Below, piece by piece: positions 1 to 64,000 of a stretch of 64,000 nucleotides of DNA (within the stretch, counting starts at the first letter, position 1; the number at the start of each line of letters is the position of its first letter). The notes below the pieces were generated by a model. The model saw nothing but the letters and a program-made list of their open reading frames with translations, was not told the DNA's origin and did not search any database. Source of the stretch: a virus (Duplodnaviria; Caudoviricetes). The stretch is taken from IMG/VR virus record IMGVR_UViG_3300033121_000711, positions 28,713 to 92,712 of that record. One strand, 5' to 3'. The position numbers and the translations under genes were made by a program.

Positions 1-1884
1 GGCCGATTTCTCGACCAATAATTGTTGATTGTAAATAAAATAATTACGTTCCATTTCATGTAATCCGTAATACTTAATATTGTATCGTAGGATTACTAGG
101 TTATTATTGTTTTGCTTATAATCTGATTTCCAAGCTGCTTTTACTTTGGTTATAAGATCTTCTGTCTCAGTATAAGAAACTTCTAATGTCTGTTCTATAA
201 TGTCAGATTCTGTTATAGTTGTAACTGCTGTTGATTTCTTAGATAAATATTTAATATGAAAGACATTGTTTTTCAACCAAACAATACAACGTGATTGATA
301 AGCAATATCTTGGATAAGACTTATAACATTTGGTCGGTCTAATAAAGCAAAATTAGAAGGATAGGCAGCTAGTAGACTTTGAACTTCATTGAAGCTAGTT
401 GTATCATAAGTATGATCTGAATACGTATCAATAAGCCATTTAATAATTGTTACAGTATTTGGCCCTATTGGGCTTGTGCATGTTACATATAGTTCATCAT
501 CCCAGCCGAGACTATCACCATTAGCATCGTTTAGCGAAGACAATGCGTTAGGCACTACAATCATTGTTACTGGTAATGTGCCAAAACTGCATTGTGTCGT
601 ATAATATAGATTTGTAGGAACTAGAGATAATTGTTTTATGCCACCATAATCTCTGTAAGCGTAAACAAGTTTCACTGTAACTTGGATTGTGGCAGCTACA
701 ATGTATCTAATATAATCAGGTTCTTCATCAACATCCCCGGCAACTAATCCAAGGATAAGTCTTTGACCGGCAGGATTCCAGAAGAATTTATCTCTAGCTA
801 TATAGAGTGGTGGATCTTCAGAGCCTGCTTCTGGCGGTTCAATGTTTTTATATTTCTCAGTCTCTGGGTGTTCAGTTGAAGTGATATGGAAAGAATCGCC
901 AAGAAAATATCCTCGATACGTTCCAGATCCTATTCTATAATTACGTTCAACTCCTTGACGGAAAACTGATCCGTTAGTAACACCTATAACATTTTTATTA
1001 TAAGTTTTCTGTTTGTTTAAAATTGTTTGAAGTGCATCATTATTATCTTTGATCTTTTGAGCTTGCAAAAGATATTTATTGCCTTGATCTAAATATTGTT
1101 TAGCCAATCCACTATAGTATCCAGTACCTTCTTCAATAGATGCGAGATCGTCCAACTCTCCAAGTTTTCTTGCAGTATAAGAAGCTTGCAGATAACCTAA
1201 TAAATAGATTTGTGCTAGAGATGCAGCGTAATCAGATTGCTTAACCTGATCTGCAATATGTGGTTCAATAGAGGGATCTTCAATACCGTGATCGTCAGTT
1301 GTCGTAGAGTCTGCGGCATCGCCTTGACGATCTTTATAAGGGATATCATCTATTCGTGTAGCCGGTAATTTTAAAACAGTGCCAAAAATTAACGGCCAGA
1401 CTTTGCCTATCTGATCTTGAGGTAGATTAGAAAACTGTCCTTCTTCTGGTGAGAATCCAACTTCAATATCCGAAGCTTGCGAAATCACTGAAAAAGTTAA
1501 TGTTCTATCTGACTCTTTCCATATTACAGGTGAGGCGATTATACCAGAAAAAAGAACAAACTTATCTGTTATAGGTATGCCTGAAAACCATTGATAAATT
1601 GTTACTTTCTTGCGATGTATATCTACATTGTTAAAATATTGTTTCATCTGTCCGTCACTATCATCTAATGTGACGGTAACATTTTGTGACGTACCGCTTT
1701 TGCTGACATTAAGAACATCATCAAAAGCTGAGATACTTAAAATTCTCCCTTCAATCCCCTCAAAAGTTTTATCTCCATAAATTTTAGTCGAGTTTGTATT
1801 CCATTCAATCTCAACTAAACAGATAGGCTCTGTTCCAGTTTTTTGCTGTAGCTTTGTAAGACTGGCTGTTGATATAGTTCTCAC
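1..1884 (-). CDS. Large tail/baseplate-region structural protein, truncated at window edge (not in ORF track)
   Basis: GTG at 1884 overlaps the upstream TGA (GTGA) and reads MRTISTASLTKLQQKTGTEPICLVEIEW...; lies downstream of the tape measure gene. Only the N-terminal part was translated by hand. Confidence 0.7.
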   Translation of the reverse strand, partial: MRTISTASLTKLQQKTGTEPICLVEIEWNTNSTKIYGDKTFEGIEGRILSISAFDDVLNVSKSGTSQNVTVTLDDSDGQMKQYFNNVDIHRKKVTIYQWFSGIPITDKFVLFSGIIASPVIWKESDRTLTFSVISQASDIEVGFSPEEGQFSNLPQDQIGKVWPLIFGTVLKLPATRIDDIPYKDRQGDAADSTTTDDHGIEDPSIEPHIADQVKQSDYAASLAQIYLLGYLQASYTARKLGELDDLASIEEGTGYYSGLAKQYLDQGNKYLLQAQKIKDNNDALQTILNKQKTYNKNVIGVTNGSVFRQGVERNYRIGSGTYRGYFLGDSFHITSTEHPETEKYKNIEPPEAGSEDPPLYIARDKFFWNPAGQRLILGLVAGDVDEEPDYIRYIVAATIQVTVKLVYAYRDYGGIKQLSLVPTNLYYTTQCSFGTLPVTMIVVPNALSSLNDANGDSLGWDDELYVTCTSPIGPNTVTIIKWLIDTYSDHTYDTTSFNEVQSLLAAYPSNFALLDRPNVISLIQDIAYQSRCIVWLKNNVFHIKYLSKKSTAVTTITESDIIEQTLEVSYTETEDLITKVKAAWKSDYKQNNNNLVILRYNIKYYGLHEMERNYFIYNQQLLVEKSA

Positions 1885-2249
1885 AAGTCCACCTGAAATG
1901 AGAAGCCAGCCTGATAGTCTTCCACACCTTCTTGGGAGACTTCGTCAGCCGGAGTTGTTATAATACAGTTGTTTAAAGTCCGACCTTCATAATCTAGTAT
2001 AGTTATTTTTTGACCTAAGCTATTTCTCATAAAGGTTAAAAGATTGTACAAATCGTTTTGAGTTAAATAGCTGAACTTCCAAGTATACGTCACAAACTTA
2101 GGCCAATTGCTATCACGAAAAATTACTAAATCACCACCTCTAGTTTTCCTATTTATTCTACGTATCTCTACAGACTCTTTGTCATTAAAATCTGGATTTC
2201 TCAGTGTTACACTATTTAGTCCGTAAGTCAAAGTAATCATTATGAACAC
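1881..2249 (-). CDS. Putative distal-tail-like structural protein
   Basis: Position after tape measure; resembles the C-terminal domain of 17596..19302. Confidence 0.5.
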   Translation of the reverse strand: MFIMITLTYGLNSVTLRNPDFNDKESVEIRRINRKTRGGDLVIFRDSNWPKFVTYTWKFSYLTQNDLYNLLTFMRNSLGQKITILDYEGRTLNNCIITTPADEVSQEGVEDYQAGFSFQVDL

Positions 2250-2779
2250 TCCGGTGCATTAGGCCCTGTCAATGTTGGAAGTGTTATATAGTATTTGTCA
2301 TAATCTTCTATAATACCGACACCGTAAGAAGATATAACTAAAGTTTGAATTATTTCTATATTTCTTATAACCGTGTAAGTTGCTTCTTGTGTAAATGTTA
2401 TTGTTTGTATTGCAGCTTTACAATTATGTACTGTTACTGATTGTTCAATATCTAAAGTATGAGTAATTTGCTCATACTCAACAACTTTAGCTACTTGACC
2501 TATAATCAAATACTGAACAATATCTTGTTGGCCAGCTGACTTATGCCCGCCTTGATGCAGGTCTAAAAACTGAGTAACTGAAATATTGTTGATAGATTTT
2601 CTTACAGAGACGTTTTGAGATAAATGTAAAAAATTTGCGACGCTTAAAAACTGTCTATAGTTTTTTGCACTATCCGTTAAAACTAAAACTTGATCAACGA
2701 AAAGACTTGTTGGGAAATATTTTGAATTTCCCTGATCAAGAGCTAGAAACTGTACCACCTTCAATTCGTACACTGCCAT
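2240..2779 (-). CDS. Virion protein with QxLxLxQ beta repeats
   Basis: Repeats QFLALDQ, NFLHLSQ, QFLDLHQ, HTLDIEQ, QTITFTQ; tail module context. Confidence 0.55.
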   Translation of the reverse strand: MAVYELKVVQFLALDQGNSKYFPTSLFVDQVLVLTDSAKNYRQFLSVANFLHLSQNVSVRKSINNISVTQFLDLHQGGHKSAGQQDIVQYLIIGQVAKVVEYEQITHTLDIEQSVTVHNCKAAIQTITFTQEATYTVIRNIEIIQTLVISSYGVGIIEDYDKYYITLPTLTGPNAPECS

Positions 2780-3038
2780 CGATATCCTCCAGATCTAATG
2801 TTTGTCCACGAAGATCGTGATGACAGTCATTTAAGAATTCGATTTTACCTTCTTTAACATAATGGTGACAATGAATAATTTCACCACGCCGACTATAACC
2901 TTCAGCTAAAATTGACGGTGAAAATGTTGGCCTATCTAAATCGCCATTCCATTCCCAAATCTTTGAACTGATTTCATGCTCTATGCGACAGCCTGGACAA
3001 TTATAGGAAACAACACTACCTGATACTTTAACTTTCAT
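2736..3038 (-). CDS. DUF6527-like small Cys/His protein
   Basis: CPGC..H, WxWNG..xPTFSPSIL, CHxYVxxGxI motifs; probable start ATG 3038 with GGAG RBS. Confidence 0.6.
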   Translation of the reverse strand: MKVKVSGSVVSYNCPGCRIEHEISSKIWEWNGDLDRPTFSPSILAEGYSRRGEIIHCHHYVKEGKIEFLNDCHHDLRGQTLDLEDIDGSVRIEGGTVSSS

Positions 3039-3054
3039 TTTGACTCCAGAAAGC

Positions 3055-3095
3055 AAAATAGGCGAGCCGAGCGAGTGCCCGGCTCGCCTATTTTT
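3055..3095 (-). terminator. Intrinsic terminator hairpin, possibly bidirectional
   Basis: AAAATAGGCGAGCCG...CGGCTCGCCTATTTT immediately after the stop of 3098..3649. Confidence 0.7.
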
Positions 3096-3097
3096 AT

Positions 3098-3649
3098 TTA
3101 CGCATTCAGCGTGTAAGTAACTTTCAACTGGTCTCCATTGACTACCGGAACGTCGGCAGTAAACAGAGCTGTAGACCAAAGATAGCCAGTCGTTCCACCT
3201 TTAGTATTGTTACTGGTGATAAAGATACCCTTAACCGTGCCACTAGAAGACACGTCAAAAGTAGCAGGAGTACCATTAGTCACAGATTGAGAAGCCGCAG
3301 CGTCAGAGCCCCAAGCCACGCGATTGGATTGGCTATAGCTTGTGAACTCTGTCCAGCCACCGTGACTATTCATCACGTCTGTAGCAGCTAATGCACTGTA
3401 ACTTGTCAAGTTGATAAGACCAATATACCAACTGGAATTAGCAACTTGCGTTTCATCGTTGAACATGACATCGAAAAGAAGGTTCTTGCCTTGATTTACG
3501 ATATCATTAAAAATTGTATAATGGTCGTAGAATTTACCTTCACGAAAATGATCGATATCAAATCGACCTCTAAGATCCAGCTTTTGTCCTTTAGGACGCT
3601 CTTGCATCTTAAGAAACATGGAACCATTTTCAAGTACGATTTTATTCAT
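3098..3649 (-). CDS. Virion structural protein (paralog of 17024..17599)
   Basis: WYIGL...DVMNSHGGWTE..Y..SNR...NNTKGGTTG.L motif shared with 17024..17599. Confidence 0.65.
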   Translation of the reverse strand: MNKIVLENGSMFLKMQERPKGQKLDLRGRFDIDHFREGKFYDHYTIFNDIVNQGKNLLFDVMFNDETQVANSSWYIGLINLTSYSALAATDVMNSHGGWTEFTSYSQSNRVAWGSDAAASQSVTNGTPATFDVSSSGTVKGIFITSNNTKGGTTGYLWSTALFTADVPVVNGDQLKVTYTLNA

Positions 3650-3652
3650 CTT

Positions 3653-6600
3653 TTATCCTAAATTTATTGTACCACGCCGGATACCGCGACGTAGACCTTG
3701 TGCAATGTTTCTCAACGATTGTCCGTCAGTTTGACCGCCAGACACATTAACAGTTATATCGCCAACATTTGTAACGGGGCCACCGTTATTCATATACTTA
3801 GGCATACCGCCAGAATTCATAGCTCTAAGTAAAGGTGCAAACATTTTGGTTGCATCTTCATTCATTACATATTCTTTTTTACTCAACATGGCAGGCACGT
3901 TATCGCTACCTCTCGGCACGAAATTAACAAAACCGCCATATTTCATATACTCTGGAGGCTTACCGCCAAACATACGACCTTCAGCCGGTACGTTTGGTAA
4001 AGCATCTATAGGATTTAGCCCTGGTTGATTATTAAGAGCATTATTTATACGTTCAAGTTCATTAGCATAATTTGCGGCTGCATTAGCTAAAGTTTGAAAA
4101 TTAGATTGTACAACAGGTGTTGAATTAATAGATGCTTCAGCCATAGCCCTTAAAGCACCGGGGACATTTTTTAGGCGTTGATCCAAATTAGCGGCCGTAT
4201 TTAAAGCAGCATCTAATTTGTTTTTAGTTTGCTCTATACTTGTAGCAGCTGTAACTAAATCTTGACCAACACCTGTAGATAGTCCTATCTGATCTTTTAC
4301 AGATCTACCTTTATCTGCACCAAAAGATATTTTATCTGGACTTCCAAGATTACGTAATCTAATATATTCCAATGTTGCAGCGTTAAGAGCTTCAATAGCT
4401 TGACGTACTTTGTTAGCGTTTTCAACAGTACGTCCACCAGAGGCGTTAAATGCATCTCTTGCAGCTTTTAAATCGTCAACTTTTTCTAAGGCTTTATTGC
4501 GAGCTGGTTCAGATTCTTTATCGGTTCTTATACCATCTATCTTAATAGGCTTATCAAGACTGGCTTTAAAGACATCTATTTGACGATTAACACCACTGAG
4601 TAGTCTATCTATTTCAGTAGTTTCTTGCCTAATCTTTTCTTGAGCTTTAGTCGCTAAGTTTTCAATATTTTGAATATCTCGTCCAGCACCTTCTTGAATC
4701 TTTTGAGCAGATTCAACATTTTGTGCTGTTCGTATTTGATTGATAATGCTATCTCTTTGCTTTTGCAAATCGATAAAGACTTGGAATCCTCTTCCAGGAT
4801 CTGAATCTTGGGAAGCTAATTCTAATATCTTTTTACGTCGAGTTTCAAACTCGCGTAAAGCACGTTCAGTACCTTCAGGGCCTTTATACTCATTCTTTAA
4901 TTTACCTTCTTTATTGAAGACATCAATCTTCTCAAGAAGCATAAATTGTTGTTGCAGAAGACGTATACGTTCACGTTCTTTAGCTGCAAGCGACTCTTGC
5001 TGTTTTTGCTTATCGCTCTGTACTTGACGATATTGCTCTTCTAAAGCTAATCGTTCTTGTGTCAGAGAATTTATCTGAGATTCAATATCTTTTGTTCTAA
5101 CTGTGAACTCGTAACGAGCTTGACCGTCAGGGCCAATTGTTGGTGCTACTTGTCCTTGTTTTACCCGGAACTCAAACTGTTTTCTTTCATTCTCAGTTTG
5201 TTTCTGGAATAATTGAGACTGTAACTGTTGAACATCGTTAAATAGTTTTCGACCTTCTTCAGCACCTTCTTTAGTGCCTTTAGCAAACTCTTCTCTAGCT
5301 TGTGCAGCTAGTTGTAGAATTCTTGCTTTTAATAATTCGATCTGTTGATCGTTAGCTATAAATCCTGTAAAATTGTCTTGATTGCCAGGACTTGCAAATT
5401 TTAATTTTTCGTTAAAAATTGCATTAGAGCCACGTCTTGGTAGATCTTCAGATTCTCTCAAACTTTGACGGATCTCAGACTTAGCTCTGTTAGCTTCTTC
5501 ATTGAATCTAGAAACATTACGACGAAGACTTTCAAAATATGTACCAGAACTTGTTTTAAGATTCTCAGTTATAGCTTTCAGATTATCTGTAGCTACAACC
5601 TTAAGTCTATTAGCTTCTTTCAAAACGTTCGTAGAGAAAGTTAAAACAGTTTGGAATCTTTTCTTATACTCTTCTTTAACCTTTTCAGTTGTTTGACTTA
5701 CACCTTTTTCTTCAAGTTCACCAATACCTTTACGAACTTTTTCAGCTTCTATAGATGCTTGTTTAGATTTTGAAATCACATTGTCTAAAGCATCAAGCTG
5801 CTTACTAAAGATTTTATCTCCAACATAATAGCTTCCCCCAAAAGCTATAGCTAAAGCGGCAACTGGTGTAGCAGCAGCTAATGCTGCTTTTGTTACAGCC
5901 CCTAATCCTGTTAACATAGCAGGAAAAGAAGTTGTGCTTAAATAAGTGTAAGCTACACTTAGAGCTGTAGTAGTTGCTGTCAGCGTTCGCTTAGCCAAAG
6001 AAGATGCAGCAGTTAGAGCTATTTCAGTTTGCATTGCCGGGTGTAGAGCTATTAAAACACCTCGATAAGCAATATACCCACCAATAGTTAATTGGATAGT
6101 AGCTAATAAGCCTTTAGCAGCATTGGCTGCACCACCCATACCTTCAACAATACGTACTAATCCTTTTAAGAACGGCTCACCAAAATCTTGCTCAAAATAA
6201 TTGCGAAGTTGAATCATCTGTTGGGCAGCTCTTTGTCCCGGAGATTCTTGAACTTCTTTTTTAGCGTTCTCGTACTCTTTTTGAGCTCCTGTGATCTTTC
6301 TTAAAGAATCTTGGAAGTCATTAAAGGCCCCACCAGTAAGACCGACAGTTCCTCGAATAGCTCGAATCTGTCCGAGCAAGTCACCAATCCTACCAGTACC
6401 TTTAGCTGCTTCTTGATCTAATTTCTGTAATACTCCAGCAAATCCAAAAGTAGCAATAGCTGCCGTACCGCTAGAAACACCCCACTCTTCAAAAAGCTTC
6501 TTCATCTCATCTGTAGGACGGATAAGCTTTAAAAGAATATTTTGAATAAGTGTGCTAGAGTCGTTAAATTTAATACCGCGATTTGTTAATACTGCAATAG

Positions 6601-24824: not shown

Positions 24825-25136
24825 TCAATCACCACCAGGACCTGCCGGAATAGGTAACAAAGTAACAGATCCTTGCAGCTTAATATCCCAAGGTATCGGC
24901 GGAGCACCATAATTCACAAGGAATACTTCGGCCGTTATATATCCAGATTTCGTGCACACTGCCCGATATTTTCCTGGATTTACAGTCCGAGTATCTCCTC
25001 CATGCCAGTAACCATCAAGACCTGTATCTGCCTCTACAAGAAAATCGCCATTATCGCGATAGACAGTAATATGCACTCCAGGTAACACGTTACCGTTAGA
25101 GGCAAACGAGAAAAGAGTCAGGTCAACACTGGCCAT
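24825..25136 (-). CDS. Carboxypeptidase-regulatory/transthyretin-like beta-sandwich protein
   Basis: GNVLPGV.ITV...TG.DG......PG.Y....TKSGY motif. Confidence 0.5.
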   Translation of the reverse strand: MASVDLTLFSFASNGNVLPGVHITVYRDNGDFLVEADTGLDGYWHGGDTRTVNPGKYRAVCTKSGYITAEVFLVNYGAPPIPWDIKLQGSVTLLPIPAGPGGD

Positions 25137-25693
25137 TAGTAGCTCCGAAATTGTGCTGCACCACCGCAGTAATTACCGGCATTCTGCTGTAGCACGATGC
25201 TTTGCGTGCAAGCTGTTTCAGCTTGCACAACCGGCTGAGTGATAACCTTTTGCGTTACAATTTTCTCTGTAACGATTGGCTGACTTACCACAACATTTTC
25301 AGTCGGGGTTGTATAAGCCACCTGCTGAGCAACAAAAGGTGCAGCGTAAAATCGTTGACGAGCAACAAAAGGTGCAGCGTAAAATTGCTGATGAGCAACA
25401 AAACGCTGACGAGCAACAAAAGGTGCTCGGTAAGCAGAAAACTGCTGAGCAACAAAAGGTGCCCGACCAACAACAACACGGGCAACAGGAGTGTTAACAA
25501 CAACTCGGGCTCGCGGAGTAAAACCGAAAGCCGCAGCTGTAACACGGAAAGGGAAGCCAACAACTCGATTGATTCCGCGACCAATAGCTGTAGCTACAGG
25601 GAAAGGTCGCCGAACTTGAACTTGAACCTGCTGAGCATCAGCAAACATTGCGAAACAGAGCAGGAACAGAAAAGCCAAAATGAACTTCTTCAT
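25136..25693 (-). CDS. Secreted low-complexity protein with APFVA(Q/R)Q repeats
   Basis: Signal peptide MKKFILAFLFLLCFAMFADA; four APFVA repeats. Confidence 0.65.
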   Translation of the reverse strand: MKKFILAFLFLLCFAMFADAQQVQVQVRRPFPVATAIGRGINRVVGFPFRVTAAAFGFTPRARVVVNTPVARVVVGRAPFVAQQFSAYRAPFVARQRFVAHQQFYAAPFVARQRFYAAPFVAQQVAYTTPTENVVVSQPIVTEKIVTQKVITQPVVQAETACTQSIVLQQNAGNYCGGAAQFRSY

Positions 25694-58032: not shown

Positions 58033-58143
58033 CTTATTCTCGTTTTAGCAGCCCTTCTACACCCGTGGTCGATGTAGAGTCTGGTTAGGCCCTATACAGC
58101 TTAGGCACTAACAGTAGATTAGGTATCGAACACTGCACCTAAA

Positions 58144-58216
58144 TACCCCAGGCTGGAATCGAACCAGCGACCCCCGGCTTATAAGGCCGATGCTCTAACC
58201 ACTGAGCTACTGGGGC
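58144..58216 (-). tRNA. tRNA-Ile (anticodon TAT), CCA not encoded
   Basis: Full cloverleaf GCCCCAG...CTGGGGT-A; anticodon loop CT-TAT-AA. Confidence 0.9.
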
Positions 58217-58306
58217 ACATAAATGACTGCTTATCCCGTCCTAGGTTGCAACACGCAAGGGCAGACCGAGACTTAAAATCCGCCCATAAGCAGTCATTTA
58301 TTTCAA

Positions 58307-59563: not shown

Positions 59564-59578
59564 AAAAGTTCCTTTCAA

Positions 59579-59651
59579 AGCTATCGGTGGGAGTCGAACC
59601 CACAACCTGTTGATTACAAATCAACTGCTCTGCCAATTGAGCTACGATAGC
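59579..59651 (-). tRNA. tRNA-Thr (anticodon TGT), CCA not encoded
   Basis: Full cloverleaf GCTATCG...CGATAGC-T; anticodon loop TT-TGT-AA. Confidence 0.92.
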
Positions 59652-60091
59652 TAGGGTATTACCCGTTATCTAGCACATCATTAATCCAATCAATACCACA
59701 TTTAACTTCATGACCATCATCTTCAACAACAAAAATTCCATCAGATGGTTCAGGTGCTAATTTCTCTTTTGCTTCCGTATATTCTTCTGCCTCGATTTGT
59801 TTTTTGAATACGCCATCTCTAGAATACAAACGATAACAGTAAGCCATAATAAATTATCTTTAATTCAAGTTAAGAGAATCGAACCCACAATTTGAAATTG
59901 TGGGTTCGATAATATACTGGTGCCGTGGTTTTTCAAGCTGACCAGTAACAGCTTTCATGTCCACGCTTGTTATCGCGTTGCAATAGTTACTCGAAAAGCT
60001 TAGTGGCCTTAACTATTGCAATGACCACTCACGGCTAGGTCTGCGTGTGGTCGGCCACTAATTTGTACTTGAGGATTTCTCCTCAAGTGTA

Positions 60092-62002: not shown

Positions 62003-62384
62003 TCAGAAATCTTACAGTCATACGCTGACCGATAATAGCGTCCCGGTAATCACAATCAATTGTTAACAACATCCCTGAATCTAGGACAAGTTCAATCAAC
62101 GTACCTGCGACACCAGTTACTGTCGCCCTAGATAAGTCTCCCCAATCACCAATCTCTTTCCTCACTTTCTCATCAGTTGTAAATGATCCGGTACTAGCCA
62201 TACCAAGATTACGTAACTTCAGAAAAAGACCTTTAAGCCATTTGATTTCTTCCTCTCTCGCATCGATTTGGATGCGTTGCATTGGCGTTAGGTCTCGTTT
62301 CAAGGGACGTTTTTGACCGCAAAACATACATTTTGTTTTGCTTAATCCTTGACAAATTCTACAAGCCACTGAATTAAGTTTCAT
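61983..62384 (-). CDS. Zinc-finger-containing hypothetical protein
   Basis: CRIC...CMFC N-terminus. Confidence 0.55.
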   Translation of the reverse strand: MKLNSVACRICQGLSKTKCMFCGQKRPLKRDLTPMQRIQIDAREEEIKWLKGLFLKLRNLGMASTGSFTTDEKVRKEIGDWGDLSRATVTGVAGTLIELVLDSGMLLTIDCDYRDAIIGQRMTVRFLNGVPKL

Positions 62385-64000
62385 TAGCTTCTCTCAGAAT
62401 TCTAAAGCCACAGGTATCACCTCCAGCTAGTAAATCCCAATCTCTTACAGCTATTTGGGTGCCTATATCACACCAACAAGCACCTCGAATAGCGGGCAGA
62501 AAATCAACATCATCTAAAACTCCTTCAGGATCCGAAAGCCCAGAAAGTTGTATCGAAGATCCGGATTCAGTCGATCTCGATATATGAAACCCCGACTGAA
62601 CCAACTGCTGCCCCGAAGAACGAAAGTTGGCATCTAAAATTCCTTCAAGATCCGGAATCCTAGATAACTCCTCTGCATTCTCTGCTTTAACATACGTCGT
62701 CGTATGCTTAATTTCGTTCCCATACTGCACCAACTGTTGCCCCGAATCACGAAAGTCAGCGTCTGTTAAGACTTCACCTCCTTCAGAATTCGGAAGCCCA
62801 GATATTTGCTCTTTTGTTGTGTTGTGGCTTTCCAATACATTTCCATCTTGCAGAATGTACTCCGATCGAACCAACTGCTGCTCCGGAAAGACAACGTCCG
62901 TTAAGACTCCACCTCCTTCAAAATCCGGAAGCCCACATCCGCTAACCAAGGCTTCCTCATGCACATCAGTATCGAGTGACGTATTTGATGTTTCGATGGC
63001 AGACTGTTCCAACCGCAACTCAGAATCACGAAATCTAACGTCCGTTAAGACTTCACCTCCTTCAGGATTCGGAAGGCGAAATATTCGTTCCCGTTCCAAG
63101 TTCTGGTGTAACAGGCAATCATCATCTTGCAATGTTCGCCCACATCGAACCAACTGCTGCTCCGGAAAGATGGCGCCTAAAGCGTCACCTCCTTCAGGAT
63201 TCGTAAGCCGAGAAATTGGTAGTCGTGTACTATCAGGATTCTCGATCGTTCGATTATCCGACAAGCCACTCCTACTGTGGAGTAACTGCTGCCCCGAATC
63301 ACGAAAGTCGGCCTCTAAAATTCCTTCAGGATTCGGAATCCTTGCTCGCGAACTGGAAGCGGAGACGTTCGCCTGCAAGGTAGAACAAGCTTCGTGAACC
63401 AACTGTGACCTCGAATCACGAAAGTAGTCTAAAACTCCTTCAGAATTCGGAAACCCACATCTTTCCAAAATACCGACGTTCTCATTACTATCATCGGTTG
63501 CACACTGGCCCAACTGCCCCCTCGAAGGACTCTGAAAGTAGTCTAAATCTCCTTCAGAATCCGAAAACCCACATCTTTCCAAAATACCGACGTTCTCTTC
63601 ATTGCTGTTACTGGATTTAGAGTCATCCAACCGCTGCCCCGAACGGCGAAAGTTGGCGTCTAAAACTCCTTCAGAATTCGGAAACTCGCATCGTTGTACA
63701 TCTGAGACATTTCTATCCGATGGAACATTGGGCAATTCCGTCCTAGACTGTTCCAGCCGCCGCCCCGAATGGTCCAGAAAGTAGTCTAAATCTCCTTCAG
63801 GATTCTGAATCCCGTGTCTATCCTCGGTAAAGTTGCTTCCATTATCGCCCGTCTCGCTGCTGGGCAATTCCGTCCTAGACTGTTCAAACCGGCTCCCCGG
63901 CGGCGAGCGAAAAAAATCTAAATCTCCTTCAGGATTCTGAATCCTACGCTGGTCATCCTCGCTACTGGCGATACTCGTTTCGCTGTTAACATTCTCCCCA
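62374..64000 (-). repeat. Array of at least 13 cassettes (114-144 bp) encoding FGE-sulfatase/CLec C-terminal 'RGxSW...GFRILKE*' segments
   Basis: Conserved TTC-CGA-ATY-CTG-AAG-GAG block and TTTCGTGATTCGGGGCAGCAGTTGG-like block flank unique cores. Confidence 0.85.
62374..64000 (-). CDS. Stop-free ORF overlapping the cassette array (5' end beyond window); translation uncertain
   Basis: Frame open from the window edge to TAA 62374; ends in frame with the last cassette (AIRGACW...GFRILRE). Confidence 0.4.
   Translation of the reverse strand, partial: GENVNSETSIASSEDDQRRIQNPEGDLDFFRSPPGSRFEQSRTELPSSETGDNGSNFTEDRHGIQNPEGDLDYFLDHSGRRLEQSRTELPNVPSDRNVSDVQRCEFPNSEGVLDANFRRSGQRLDDSKSSNSNEENVGILERCGFSDSEGDLDYFQSPSRGQLGQCATDDSNENVGILERCGFPNSEGVLDYFRDSRSQLVHEACSTLQANVSASSSRARIPNPEGILEADFRDSGQQLLHSRSGLSDNRTIENPDSTRLPISRLTNPEGGDALGAIFPEQQLVRCGRTLQDDDCLLHQNLERERIFRLPNPEGGEVLTDVRFRDSELRLEQSAIETSNTSLDTDVHEEALVSGCGLPDFEGGGVLTDVVFPEQQLVRSEYILQDGNVLESHNTTKEQISGLPNSEGGEVLTDADFRDSGQQLVQYGNEIKHTTTYVKAENAEELSRIPDLEGILDANFRSSGQQLVQSGFHISRSTESGSSIQLSGLSDPEGVLDDVDFLPAIRGACWCDIGTQIAVRDWDLLAGGDTCGFRILREANET

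Follow-up and report, generated by a model that had tools for sequence, protein, structure and literature searches.

A phage lectin-fold gene with thirteen alternative C-terminal tips, a candidate for tip selection by serial +1 frameshifting

Programmed frameshifts that give one protein two alternative C-termini are already known, as are variable proteins built on a lectin fold, and to our knowledge the known programmed frameshifts give two products. UUU_Ynn has been described as especially prone to +1 shifting in bacteria and is also the shift site of YopN-TyeA, and the +1 site of influenza PA-X is UCC_UUU_CGU (PMC5009743). The locus described here lies at the end of the window, by which we mean the whole 64-kb stretch that was analysed and that forms the last part of one 92,712-bp IMG/VR phage contig (IMGVR_UViG_3300033121_000711, completeness rating 99%). 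It is a gene with an FGE-sulfatase core followed by an array of thirteen short cassettes (C1-C13), each encoding a version of the last segment of the same C-type-lectin fold. We propose, with a little better than even confidence, that serial +1 programmed frameshifting picks one of these 13 tips for one lectin-fold binding domain.

Like all genes on the contig, this gene is on the minus strand. Its core is recognised by the FGE-sulfatase model PF03781 (125 bits against a cut-off of 23.3, profile positions 7-197 of 255) and is also matched by phrog_18508 (6.9e-50). We call the core's reading frame, which is also that of a 541-codon open reading frame (ORF) in the window, frame 0, and the frame one base downstream the +1 frame. 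The N-terminal 276 residues in frame 0 consist of a weak TIGR02996-like helix and then the FGE core. This frame lacks the fold's final segment, RGGSW...GFR, beside the core; the segment is found in 12 copies in the +1 frame and in one copy in frame 0, 541 codons on. Core and array are joined across the contig end, as the array runs off the contig's last base and the gene start lies at the contig's beginning. Both copies of the overlap read identical residues into the first "NPEG", which places the core and the 541-codon ORF in the same frame, and the +1 relation of C1 to the core is seen within the uninterrupted sequence of a single locus (L001). An initial annotation of the window had placed an acceptor gene for the cassettes elsewhere. 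A profile search of the whole genome instead found its sole FGE-sulfatase domain to be this core, in the same gene and directly upstream of C1.

The same annotation had listed 13 minus-strand units without internal stops, and all of them proved to be present, with C1-C12 open in the +1 frame up to one terminal stop each. These twelve lie back to back and have the form (T/S/P)F-x3-RGxSW ... GFRILKE, followed by one to four residues and the stop. The lengths of C2-C12 range from 114 to 144 nt, every one a multiple of 3, and their stops are TAG in eight and TAA in C8-C10. The features are given below, with window positions unless the contig is named; TTTC marks the putative slip site, and E-values are from the tail profile hidden Markov model (HMM) described in the next paragraph.

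Contig 145-1004, minus strand: FGE core and gene start (locus L001), start at 1004; outside the window, directly upstream of C1
Contig 176-179, minus strand: putative slip site of C1, ACC_UUU_CGA; beyond the window
62374..63999, minus strand: carrier frame (frame 0), the 541-codon open continuation of the FGE-core gene; ends with C13, TAA at 62374-62376
63918..64000, minus strand: C1, 3' part, +1 frame, TAG; cut by the window end and completed at the contig start
63786..63917, minus strand: C2, +1 frame, 43 aa and TAG; TTTC 63912-63909; E = 0.003
63660..63785, minus strand: C3, +1 frame, 41 aa and TAG; TTTC 63780-63777; E = 0.0056
63543..63659, minus strand: C4, +1 frame, 38 aa and TAG; TTTC 63651-63648; E = 0.15
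63429..63542, minus strand: C5, +1 frame, 37 aa and TAG; TTTC 63537-63534; E = 1.5e-5
63315..63428, minus strand: C6, +1 frame, 37 aa and TAG; TTTC 63423-63420; E = 0.38
63177..63314, minus strand: C7, +1 frame, 45 aa and TAG; TTTC 63306-63303; E = 0.016
63045..63176, minus strand: C8, +1 frame, 43 aa and TAA; TTTC 63168-63165; E = 0.65; FRSSSW replaces RGxSW
62901..63044, minus strand: C9, +1 frame, 47 aa and TAA; TTTC 63033-63030; E = 2.6, the weakest cassette
62766..62900, minus strand: C10, +1 frame, 44 aa and TAA; TTTC 62889-62886; E = 0.023
62634..62765, minus strand: C11, +1 frame, 43 aa and TAG; TTTC 62754-62751; E = 0.0036
62514..62633, minus strand: C12, +1 frame, 39 aa and TAG; TTTC 62625-62622; E = 1.7e-6
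62374..62514, minus strand: C13, frame 0, IRGACW...GFRILRE, four residues and TAA; E = 0.48

The cassettes had been taken for C-terminal pieces of FGE-sulfatase folds that PF03781 should detect. The Pfam model misses single cassettes as well as C1, and Pfam holds no family for single cassettes, C13 or the 541-aa frame-0 product. We therefore built a tail HMM from the C-termini of 49 related phage FGE proteins and searched it against 2531 six-frame peptides of the genome. Six cassettes were the top six hits, and all twelve ranked among the top 25 of 2531, led by C12 and C5. In addition, a +1 shift at the gene's first in-phase TTTC would yield a 313-aa product (P0001), which is colinear over its full length with 31 relatives and has the invariant tail residues R280, G306 and R308. 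The assignment of the cassettes as alternative C-terminal, ligand-facing segments of the FGE/C-type-lectin fold thus held with the purpose-built HMM and through this colinearity. The RGxSW motif ascribed to all units is present in most, but C8-C10 lack its R-G. Because the cassettes share no conserved Cys pair, a binding rather than an enzymatic role is assumed. By blastn, the array matched none of 50,697 phage records, and a degenerate pattern for block B had 0 matches in IMG/VR. A similar pattern, which was too loose, had 119 single and evidently chance matches in metagenome contigs, none of them in an array.

All twelve +1 cassettes open with NNT-TTC, that is, with an in-phase UUU_C of frame 0. 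The Phe at this site is the first residue shared with the relatives, four residues before the Arg of RGxSW. Its codon is invariably TTC, though the genome prefers TTT, and the codon before it ends in T for all five residues found there (Pro, Phe, Thr, Ser and Asp). Synonymous permutation predicts NNT-TTC in about 4 of 12 cassettes and never gave more than 10 in 20,000 trials. The UUU_C stands 5-14 nt past the previous +1-frame stop, which is the sole place for a productive shift. Overall, the 541 codons hold 16 in-phase TTT_C (about 30 per 1000, compared to 4 per 1000 genome-wide), whereas the 274 upstream core codons hold none, making that of C1 the first in the gene. The site reads UUU_CGN in 8 of 13 cases. 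An AAGGAG precedes every cassette, 11-20 nt upstream of the UUU.

The AAGGAG derives from the ILKE codons, CTG-AAG-GAG, which are nearly fixed at the junctions in window 62514-63944 (AAG in 12/12; only CTG or TTG for Leu). The genome's own preference is for TTA/CTT, AAA and GAA instead. The codons together spell AAGGAG(G), a perfect Shine-Dalgarno core, and at several junctions pairing between this core and CUUUC in the following slip site is predicted.

We then asked what the two overlapping frames reveal about selection. The genome is AT-rich, yet no stop occurs in 495 frame-0 codons. By comparison, 5000 synonymous permutations of the cassette frame had a mean of 21 frame-0 stops and a minimum of 8, and when genome codon usage was applied the expected mean rose to 36 and the minimum to 19. 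The frame-0 product is also more hydrophilic than in the permutations (grand average of hydropathy (GRAVY) of -0.80 versus -0.56, z -5.2) and is enriched in disorder-promoting residues (z +6.4). Its net charge is -48, compared to +55 for the cassette frame. A homologue search over 5.8 billion proteins returned no match within residues 297-947. Judged by these permutations, frame 0 is shown to be held open by selection and to encode a polar, acidic stretch, which we infer to be a disordered linker.

The cassette frame is constrained as well. Variation in the conserved block had been described as mostly synonymous, and this was confirmed for the 21-nt GFRILKE block: 13 changes were inferred there, of which 8 are synonymous when read in the cassette frame and none when read in frame 0. 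Over all unit pairs, differences at cassette codon positions 1, 2 and 3 number 1134, 888 and 1255, and cassette codons with a single difference comprise 399 synonymous and 389 non-synonymous cases. Constraint on frame 0 alone would leave an expected 16 or so stops in the +1 frame, whereas none is found internally in about 480 cassette codons. From these comparisons, we consider the cassette frame to be under purifying selection. Since the same peptide is encoded in C13 by a different frame, the tail motif is, by this reasoning, selected as protein and not as DNA.

These findings also bear on another explanation, which we regard as unlikely: only frame 0 is translated, into the core, a long linker and C13, and C1-C12 are unexpressed leftovers of tandem duplication that are either young or rapidly diversified. 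Frame 0 is clearly selected and its product resembles a designed linker, as this explanation would have it. C8-C10 look degraded, with an E-value of 2.6 for C9. Tandem repeats expand easily, and here recent segments are shared between C4 and C5, the second half of C4 being almost identical to C5, and between C8 and C10; a junction that deletes C2-C5 is present in the assembly (see below). Yet leftovers should not have remained free of internal stops, nor should their changes be dominated by synonymous ones in the +1 frame while all are non-synonymous in frame 0. The TTTC is invariant despite turnover at synonymous sites, and it would need explaining why twelve dead units are all +1 and all multiples of 3. 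Moreover, an array in another phage (L201, below) repeats the design with canonical slippery heptamers.

We favour serial frameshifting, which would work as follows. Ribosomes would translate the core and then the polar carrier in frame 0. At each UUU_C, the tRNA-Phe on the P-site UUU would, in a fraction of ribosomes, re-pair to UUC in the +1 direction, the Phe being common to both frames. Slipped ribosomes would read that cassette and terminate, producing the core, the linker up to that point and the corresponding tip. Those that did not slip would continue to the next UUU_C, and those that never slipped would end on C13, the default C-terminus. Unchanged DNA would in this way yield a mixture of as many as 13 isoforms that differ in their ligand-facing surfaces, a translational counterpart of alternative splicing. 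The slipping itself, its efficiency and the tolerance of a long linker are all inferred from the sequence.

Several observations weigh against this mechanism. The units are kin, so the permutations overstate their independence and the P-values are weaker than they look. Four extra in-phase TTT_C lie inside cassettes, where shifting would yield truncated products. In prfB, a Shine-Dalgarno-like element at 3-nt spacing stimulates the +1 shift, whereas the AAGGAG here is 11-20 nt away from the UUU. Downstream of the slip sites, no conserved RNA structure was detected (mean z -0.29). Most 0-frame codons in the A site are CGN; they are not obviously rare, CGT being the phage's commonest Arg codon, and by themselves give no ground for claiming a 'hungry codon'. 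In the product P0001, the FGE match of Pfam and NCBIfam stops before C1. The CRSAxR scaffold that relatives carry in the middle of this segment is degenerate in many units, and together with the missing R-G of C8-C10 this means that some cassettes may be decaying. A linker of up to about 500 residues between the core and the last strands of its fold would be structurally unusual. Finally, the array is known from one genome only, so that the slip sites are not comparable among relatives.

Three other routes into the cassette frame were rejected. Stop-codon read-through of the cassette frame does not apply because the core lies in the other frame, transcriptional slippage because a T7 run occurs in C2 only, and -1 shifting because the -1 frame, the third frame of the minus strand, is full of stops.

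To evaluate whether a cassette is compatible with the core, we modelled core residues 62-276 with C12 as a second chain, alongside 3 controls. The complex scored 0.94 and the best control 0.10. Of 80 solved complexes, 58 reach that mark, whereas among 110 mismatched pairs only 2 do. Runs agreed in at least 97% of contacts, the partner had a predicted local distance difference test (pLDDT) score of at least 92, and in the core, the modelled C12 touches the WEWC strand and YRLP segment. The pass may be due to likeness to solved FGE structures, as the pair amounts to a split known fold. The model shows compatibility of C12 with the core only, and not how the cassette gets there.

A two-chain fit would also be expected if the cassettes were made as separate small peptides that complete a truncated core in trans, one at a time, frame 0 then being an independent matter. 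Such an arrangement appears to exist in a second phage, L020 (IMGVR_UViG_3300037484_000800, positions 4500-6100), where the FGE core ends just before the RGGSW strand and is accompanied by six tail mini-genes of about 60 aa, each with its own start, a GAGGAG followed by an ATG or GTG that overlaps the previous stop. Adjacent tails in L020 are 178-181 nt apart, with a period of 181 nt, and each is +1 to its predecessor; a non-repeat stretch lies between tails 2 and 3, and an additional domain of 100 aa is fused to one of the tails. No reverse transcriptase was found in this 43-kb record, which is 100% complete. In our array, the AAGGAG ahead of every cassette is consistent with separate translation, and in C12 an ATG follows 7 nt after it. 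The passing model of core and C12 would fit as well, with the same caveat of likeness to solved folds.

The start codons tell against such peptides. Most units had been described as lacking one, and indeed C12 alone begins with an ATG, and in C3-C5 ATG, GTG and TTG are all absent. In C2 and C8 the starts are internal only, so that using them would drop the RGxSW strand, and the sole start candidates of the other cassettes are GTG or TTG codons 15-18 nt from the Shine-Dalgarno-like motif. Separate peptides would also leave unexplained why a polar frame 0 is open over 541 codons, why C13 is in the core's frame and why the TTTC is invariant. We therefore judge them to be improbable, to much the same degree as unexpressed leftovers and if anything slightly more so. 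The initial annotation had raised a related idea, that of decoy micropeptides directed against FGE-sulfatase proteins of the host, which fails because most units lack start codons.

Its leading suggestion was a silent library, exchanged into an expressed gene by gene conversion, deletion or a reverse transcriptase, or else stored products of a diversity-generating retroelement (DGR). In the 99%-complete genome, we found no reverse transcriptase (PF00078), no serine or tyrosine recombinase (resolvase/invertase or integrase) and, outside the array, no template repeat or other cassette-like DNA. The array contains no inverted repeats. The longest exact identity between C13 and any other unit is 9 nt, and most unit pairs share 8-15 nt. 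With neither enzymes nor template nor sufficient identity, gene conversion, inversion and exchange by reverse transcription lack both enzyme and substrate. As every unit is a multiple of 3 and C1-C12 are all +1 to the core, unit-wise deletions would never bring a cassette in frame with it.

A library used at the DNA level would have a cassette moved to C13 or next to the core, with frame 0 open only so that ribosomes reach C13. The layout does resemble the pilS or vls donor arrays, and the C1-C6 junction through a shared 9-nt word (see below) suggests variants in unit number. However, homologous exchange would need longer shared stretches, and the synonymous drift in the flanks runs contrary to known systems, whose flanks are conserved. 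The missing recombinase, reverse transcriptase and inverted repeats, together with unit lengths that keep cassettes out of the core's frame, make this explanation quite improbable in our view. It also leaves the open polar frame 0 and the invariant UUU_C unexplained; an open frame 0 with twelve +1 cassettes behind such sites points to tip selection during translation.

We give very little credence to a relation with DGRs, in which the cassettes would be variable regions, or stored products, of a DGR acting in trans. RGGSW...GFR is the usual variable region of FGE-type DGR targets, and many of the relatives behind the tail HMM look like such targets. However, the 99%-complete genome has no reverse transcriptase, template repeat or second copy. 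Indels and differences outside adenines distinguish the cassettes, and their AAG never varies; the recommended test of whether variable positions map to adenines of one template thus came out negative. Scaffold residues that DGRs normally spare are not conserved either. A recommended check for an AAC-rich template found none for the cassettes. There is an AAC-dense tract on the plus strand at window ~25388-25588, with up to 12 AAC per 120 nt, across from the coding strand of ORF 25136-25693; its sequence does not resemble the cassettes, and it is on that account not their DGR template.

Because the contig begins and ends inside the array, the order of units near C1-C6 is not fully certain. Contig positions 1-76 equal window 63368-63443, and the last 77 nt of the contig (window 63924-64000) equal contig 68-144. 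Within its first 67 nt, the end of C1 is joined to the start of C6 via the shared 9-mer CTGAAGGAG, so that C2-C5 (489 nt) are lost in frame. Such a C1-C6 junction must have read support in an assembly graph with k = 77. The unit number therefore probably varies in the sampled population, or the spur reflects an unresolved repeat graph.

These contig ends are what would favour an assembly or sequencing artefact, with wrong frames or unit order caused by the break inside the repeat, and unit number and order near C1-C6 are indeed ambiguous. Still, an identical frame offset, lengths in multiples of 3 and an open frame 0 recur independently in twelve units, and the relation of core to C1 lies within uninterrupted sequence. 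The 77-nt overlaps suggest short-read de Bruijn assembly, in which indel errors are rare. We consider an artefact highly improbable, though not quite as far-fetched as an origin from a DGR.

A similar gene was found in a third phage, L201 (IMGVR_UViG_3300017963_000204; minus strand, locus plus-strand coordinates ~850-4090). It has a tail-less FGE core in frame 0 and a 1081-aa open carrier that is polar, acidic and rich in S, G and P (GRAVY -0.78, net charge -32). Twelve stop-terminated tails of 42-63 aa lie in the -1 frame, and a final tail is in frame 0. At every tail there is an in-phase C_CCU_UUN heptamer, 0-12 nt past the previous stop. All 12 CCCTTT occurrences in the array are in slip phase, compared to one in the other 10 kb. 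A G-rich, Shine-Dalgarno-like run lies ahead of most stops in L201. No reverse transcriptase was found in this record, which is 69% complete, and all of its 19 relatives have ordinary in-frame tails.

The window array has all of the features of the L201 type, namely a tail-less core, an open carrier, shifted and stop-terminated tails, slip signals and a terminal tail in frame 0. In both, the slip signal falls on a Phe codon at the start of each tail, just past the previous stop. They differ in that L201 uses the -1 frame and the canonical C_CCU_UUN at 65% GC, whereas the window uses +1 and UUU_C at 47% GC. As the two phages have no detectable DNA similarity or synteny, their arrays are of separate origin or diverged anciently.

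The wider distribution is patchy. No gene other than the core was common to the window phage and 79 core-related loci, except for one match to L025. None of 18 terminase-related phage records (45-72% identity, two of them complete) contains an FGE domain, which marks the FGE gene as an accessory acquisition. By these sequence comparisons, the arrays are sporadic, lineage-specific expansions. At L011:4643-4999, a related FGE protein has a second complete RGGSW...GFR tail following the first, both in frame and not separated by a stop. Whether phages hold a retroelement-free library of shifted-frame tips that ribosomes sample, with +1, -1 (L201) and mini-gene (L020) versions in unrelated phages pointing to repeated convergent invention, is in our estimate an even call.

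In the genome of the window phage, the neighbours of the gene are small early-type genes, a sigma factor and DNA-metabolism genes, and the tail module is far off. Given this position, a virion receptor-binding role should not be assumed. The next gene has its ATG (62384) inside the last codons of C13 and encodes a 133-aa product that contains CxxC...CxxC and matches no family; its translation may be coupled solely to that of the frame-0 product. Promoter-like and terminator-like sites occur at chance level only. The phage has three tRNA genes, none of which is a suppressor.

Window 58143-58217 and 59578-59652, contig 3035-3110: tRNA genes Ile-TAT, Thr-TGT and Leu-TAA, all for A-ending codons

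If slipping does occur, one 2.5-kb gene would give up to 13 binding proteins at fixed ratios. This would be a third phage route to diversity of ligand surfaces, beside DGR mutagenesis and DNA cassette switching, and one that requires no enzyme and no change of DNA. Gene callers see only a long orphan ORF in such a locus and miss the real domain ends, so similar arrays have probably been overlooked. The design also suggests a simple way of expressing binder libraries from one transcript.

Compared to described systems, the closest parallels are the UUU +1 shifts, which include UUU_Ynn in E. coli, Yersinia YopN-TyeA, the activator of a Mesorhizobium integrative and conjugative element (ICE) and influenza PA-X (PMC5009743). 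They have in common with the array the in-phase UUU_C, the capacity of tRNA-Phe to re-pair to UUC and a different C-terminal part supplied by the new frame, and the likeness to PA-X extends to UUU_CGN. Those cases have one site and two products (PMC5009743), whereas here 12 sites in series lead to paralogous endings of 37-47 aa along an open carrier. The array also differs in having no known stimulator at a known spacing. Lambda G/GT, T7 10A/10B and dnaX tau/gamma likewise combine a fixed N-terminal part with alternative ends made by slippage at a set ratio and a Shine-Dalgarno-like element upstream, but they shift by -1 and have two outcomes, in contrast to +1 and 13 interchangeable versions of one element.

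Similarities extend to systems that diversify binding proteins through DNA. Neisseria pilE/pilS, Borrelia vlsE, Mu Gin, P1 Cin and the R64 shufflon also keep an array of mostly start-less variants beside an expressed gene. Unlike those, the array has no recombination flanks, recombinase or inversion, and its cassettes are threaded by the expressed gene's own ORF. DGR variable proteins, of the Treponema TvpA type and with Mtd of Bordetella phage as the paradigm, have the same fold and vary the same C-terminal segment, and by analogy the purpose is probably the same, that is, many specificities on one scaffold. In place of a reverse transcriptase, a template and adenine mutagenesis, there are 13 stored versions that ribosomes would sample. 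We found no description of serial frameshift tail arrays in the literature searched. Nor did we find there a design in which a dozen shift sites in a row each lead into a paralogous copy of one structural element while a carrier frame under selection runs through them all.

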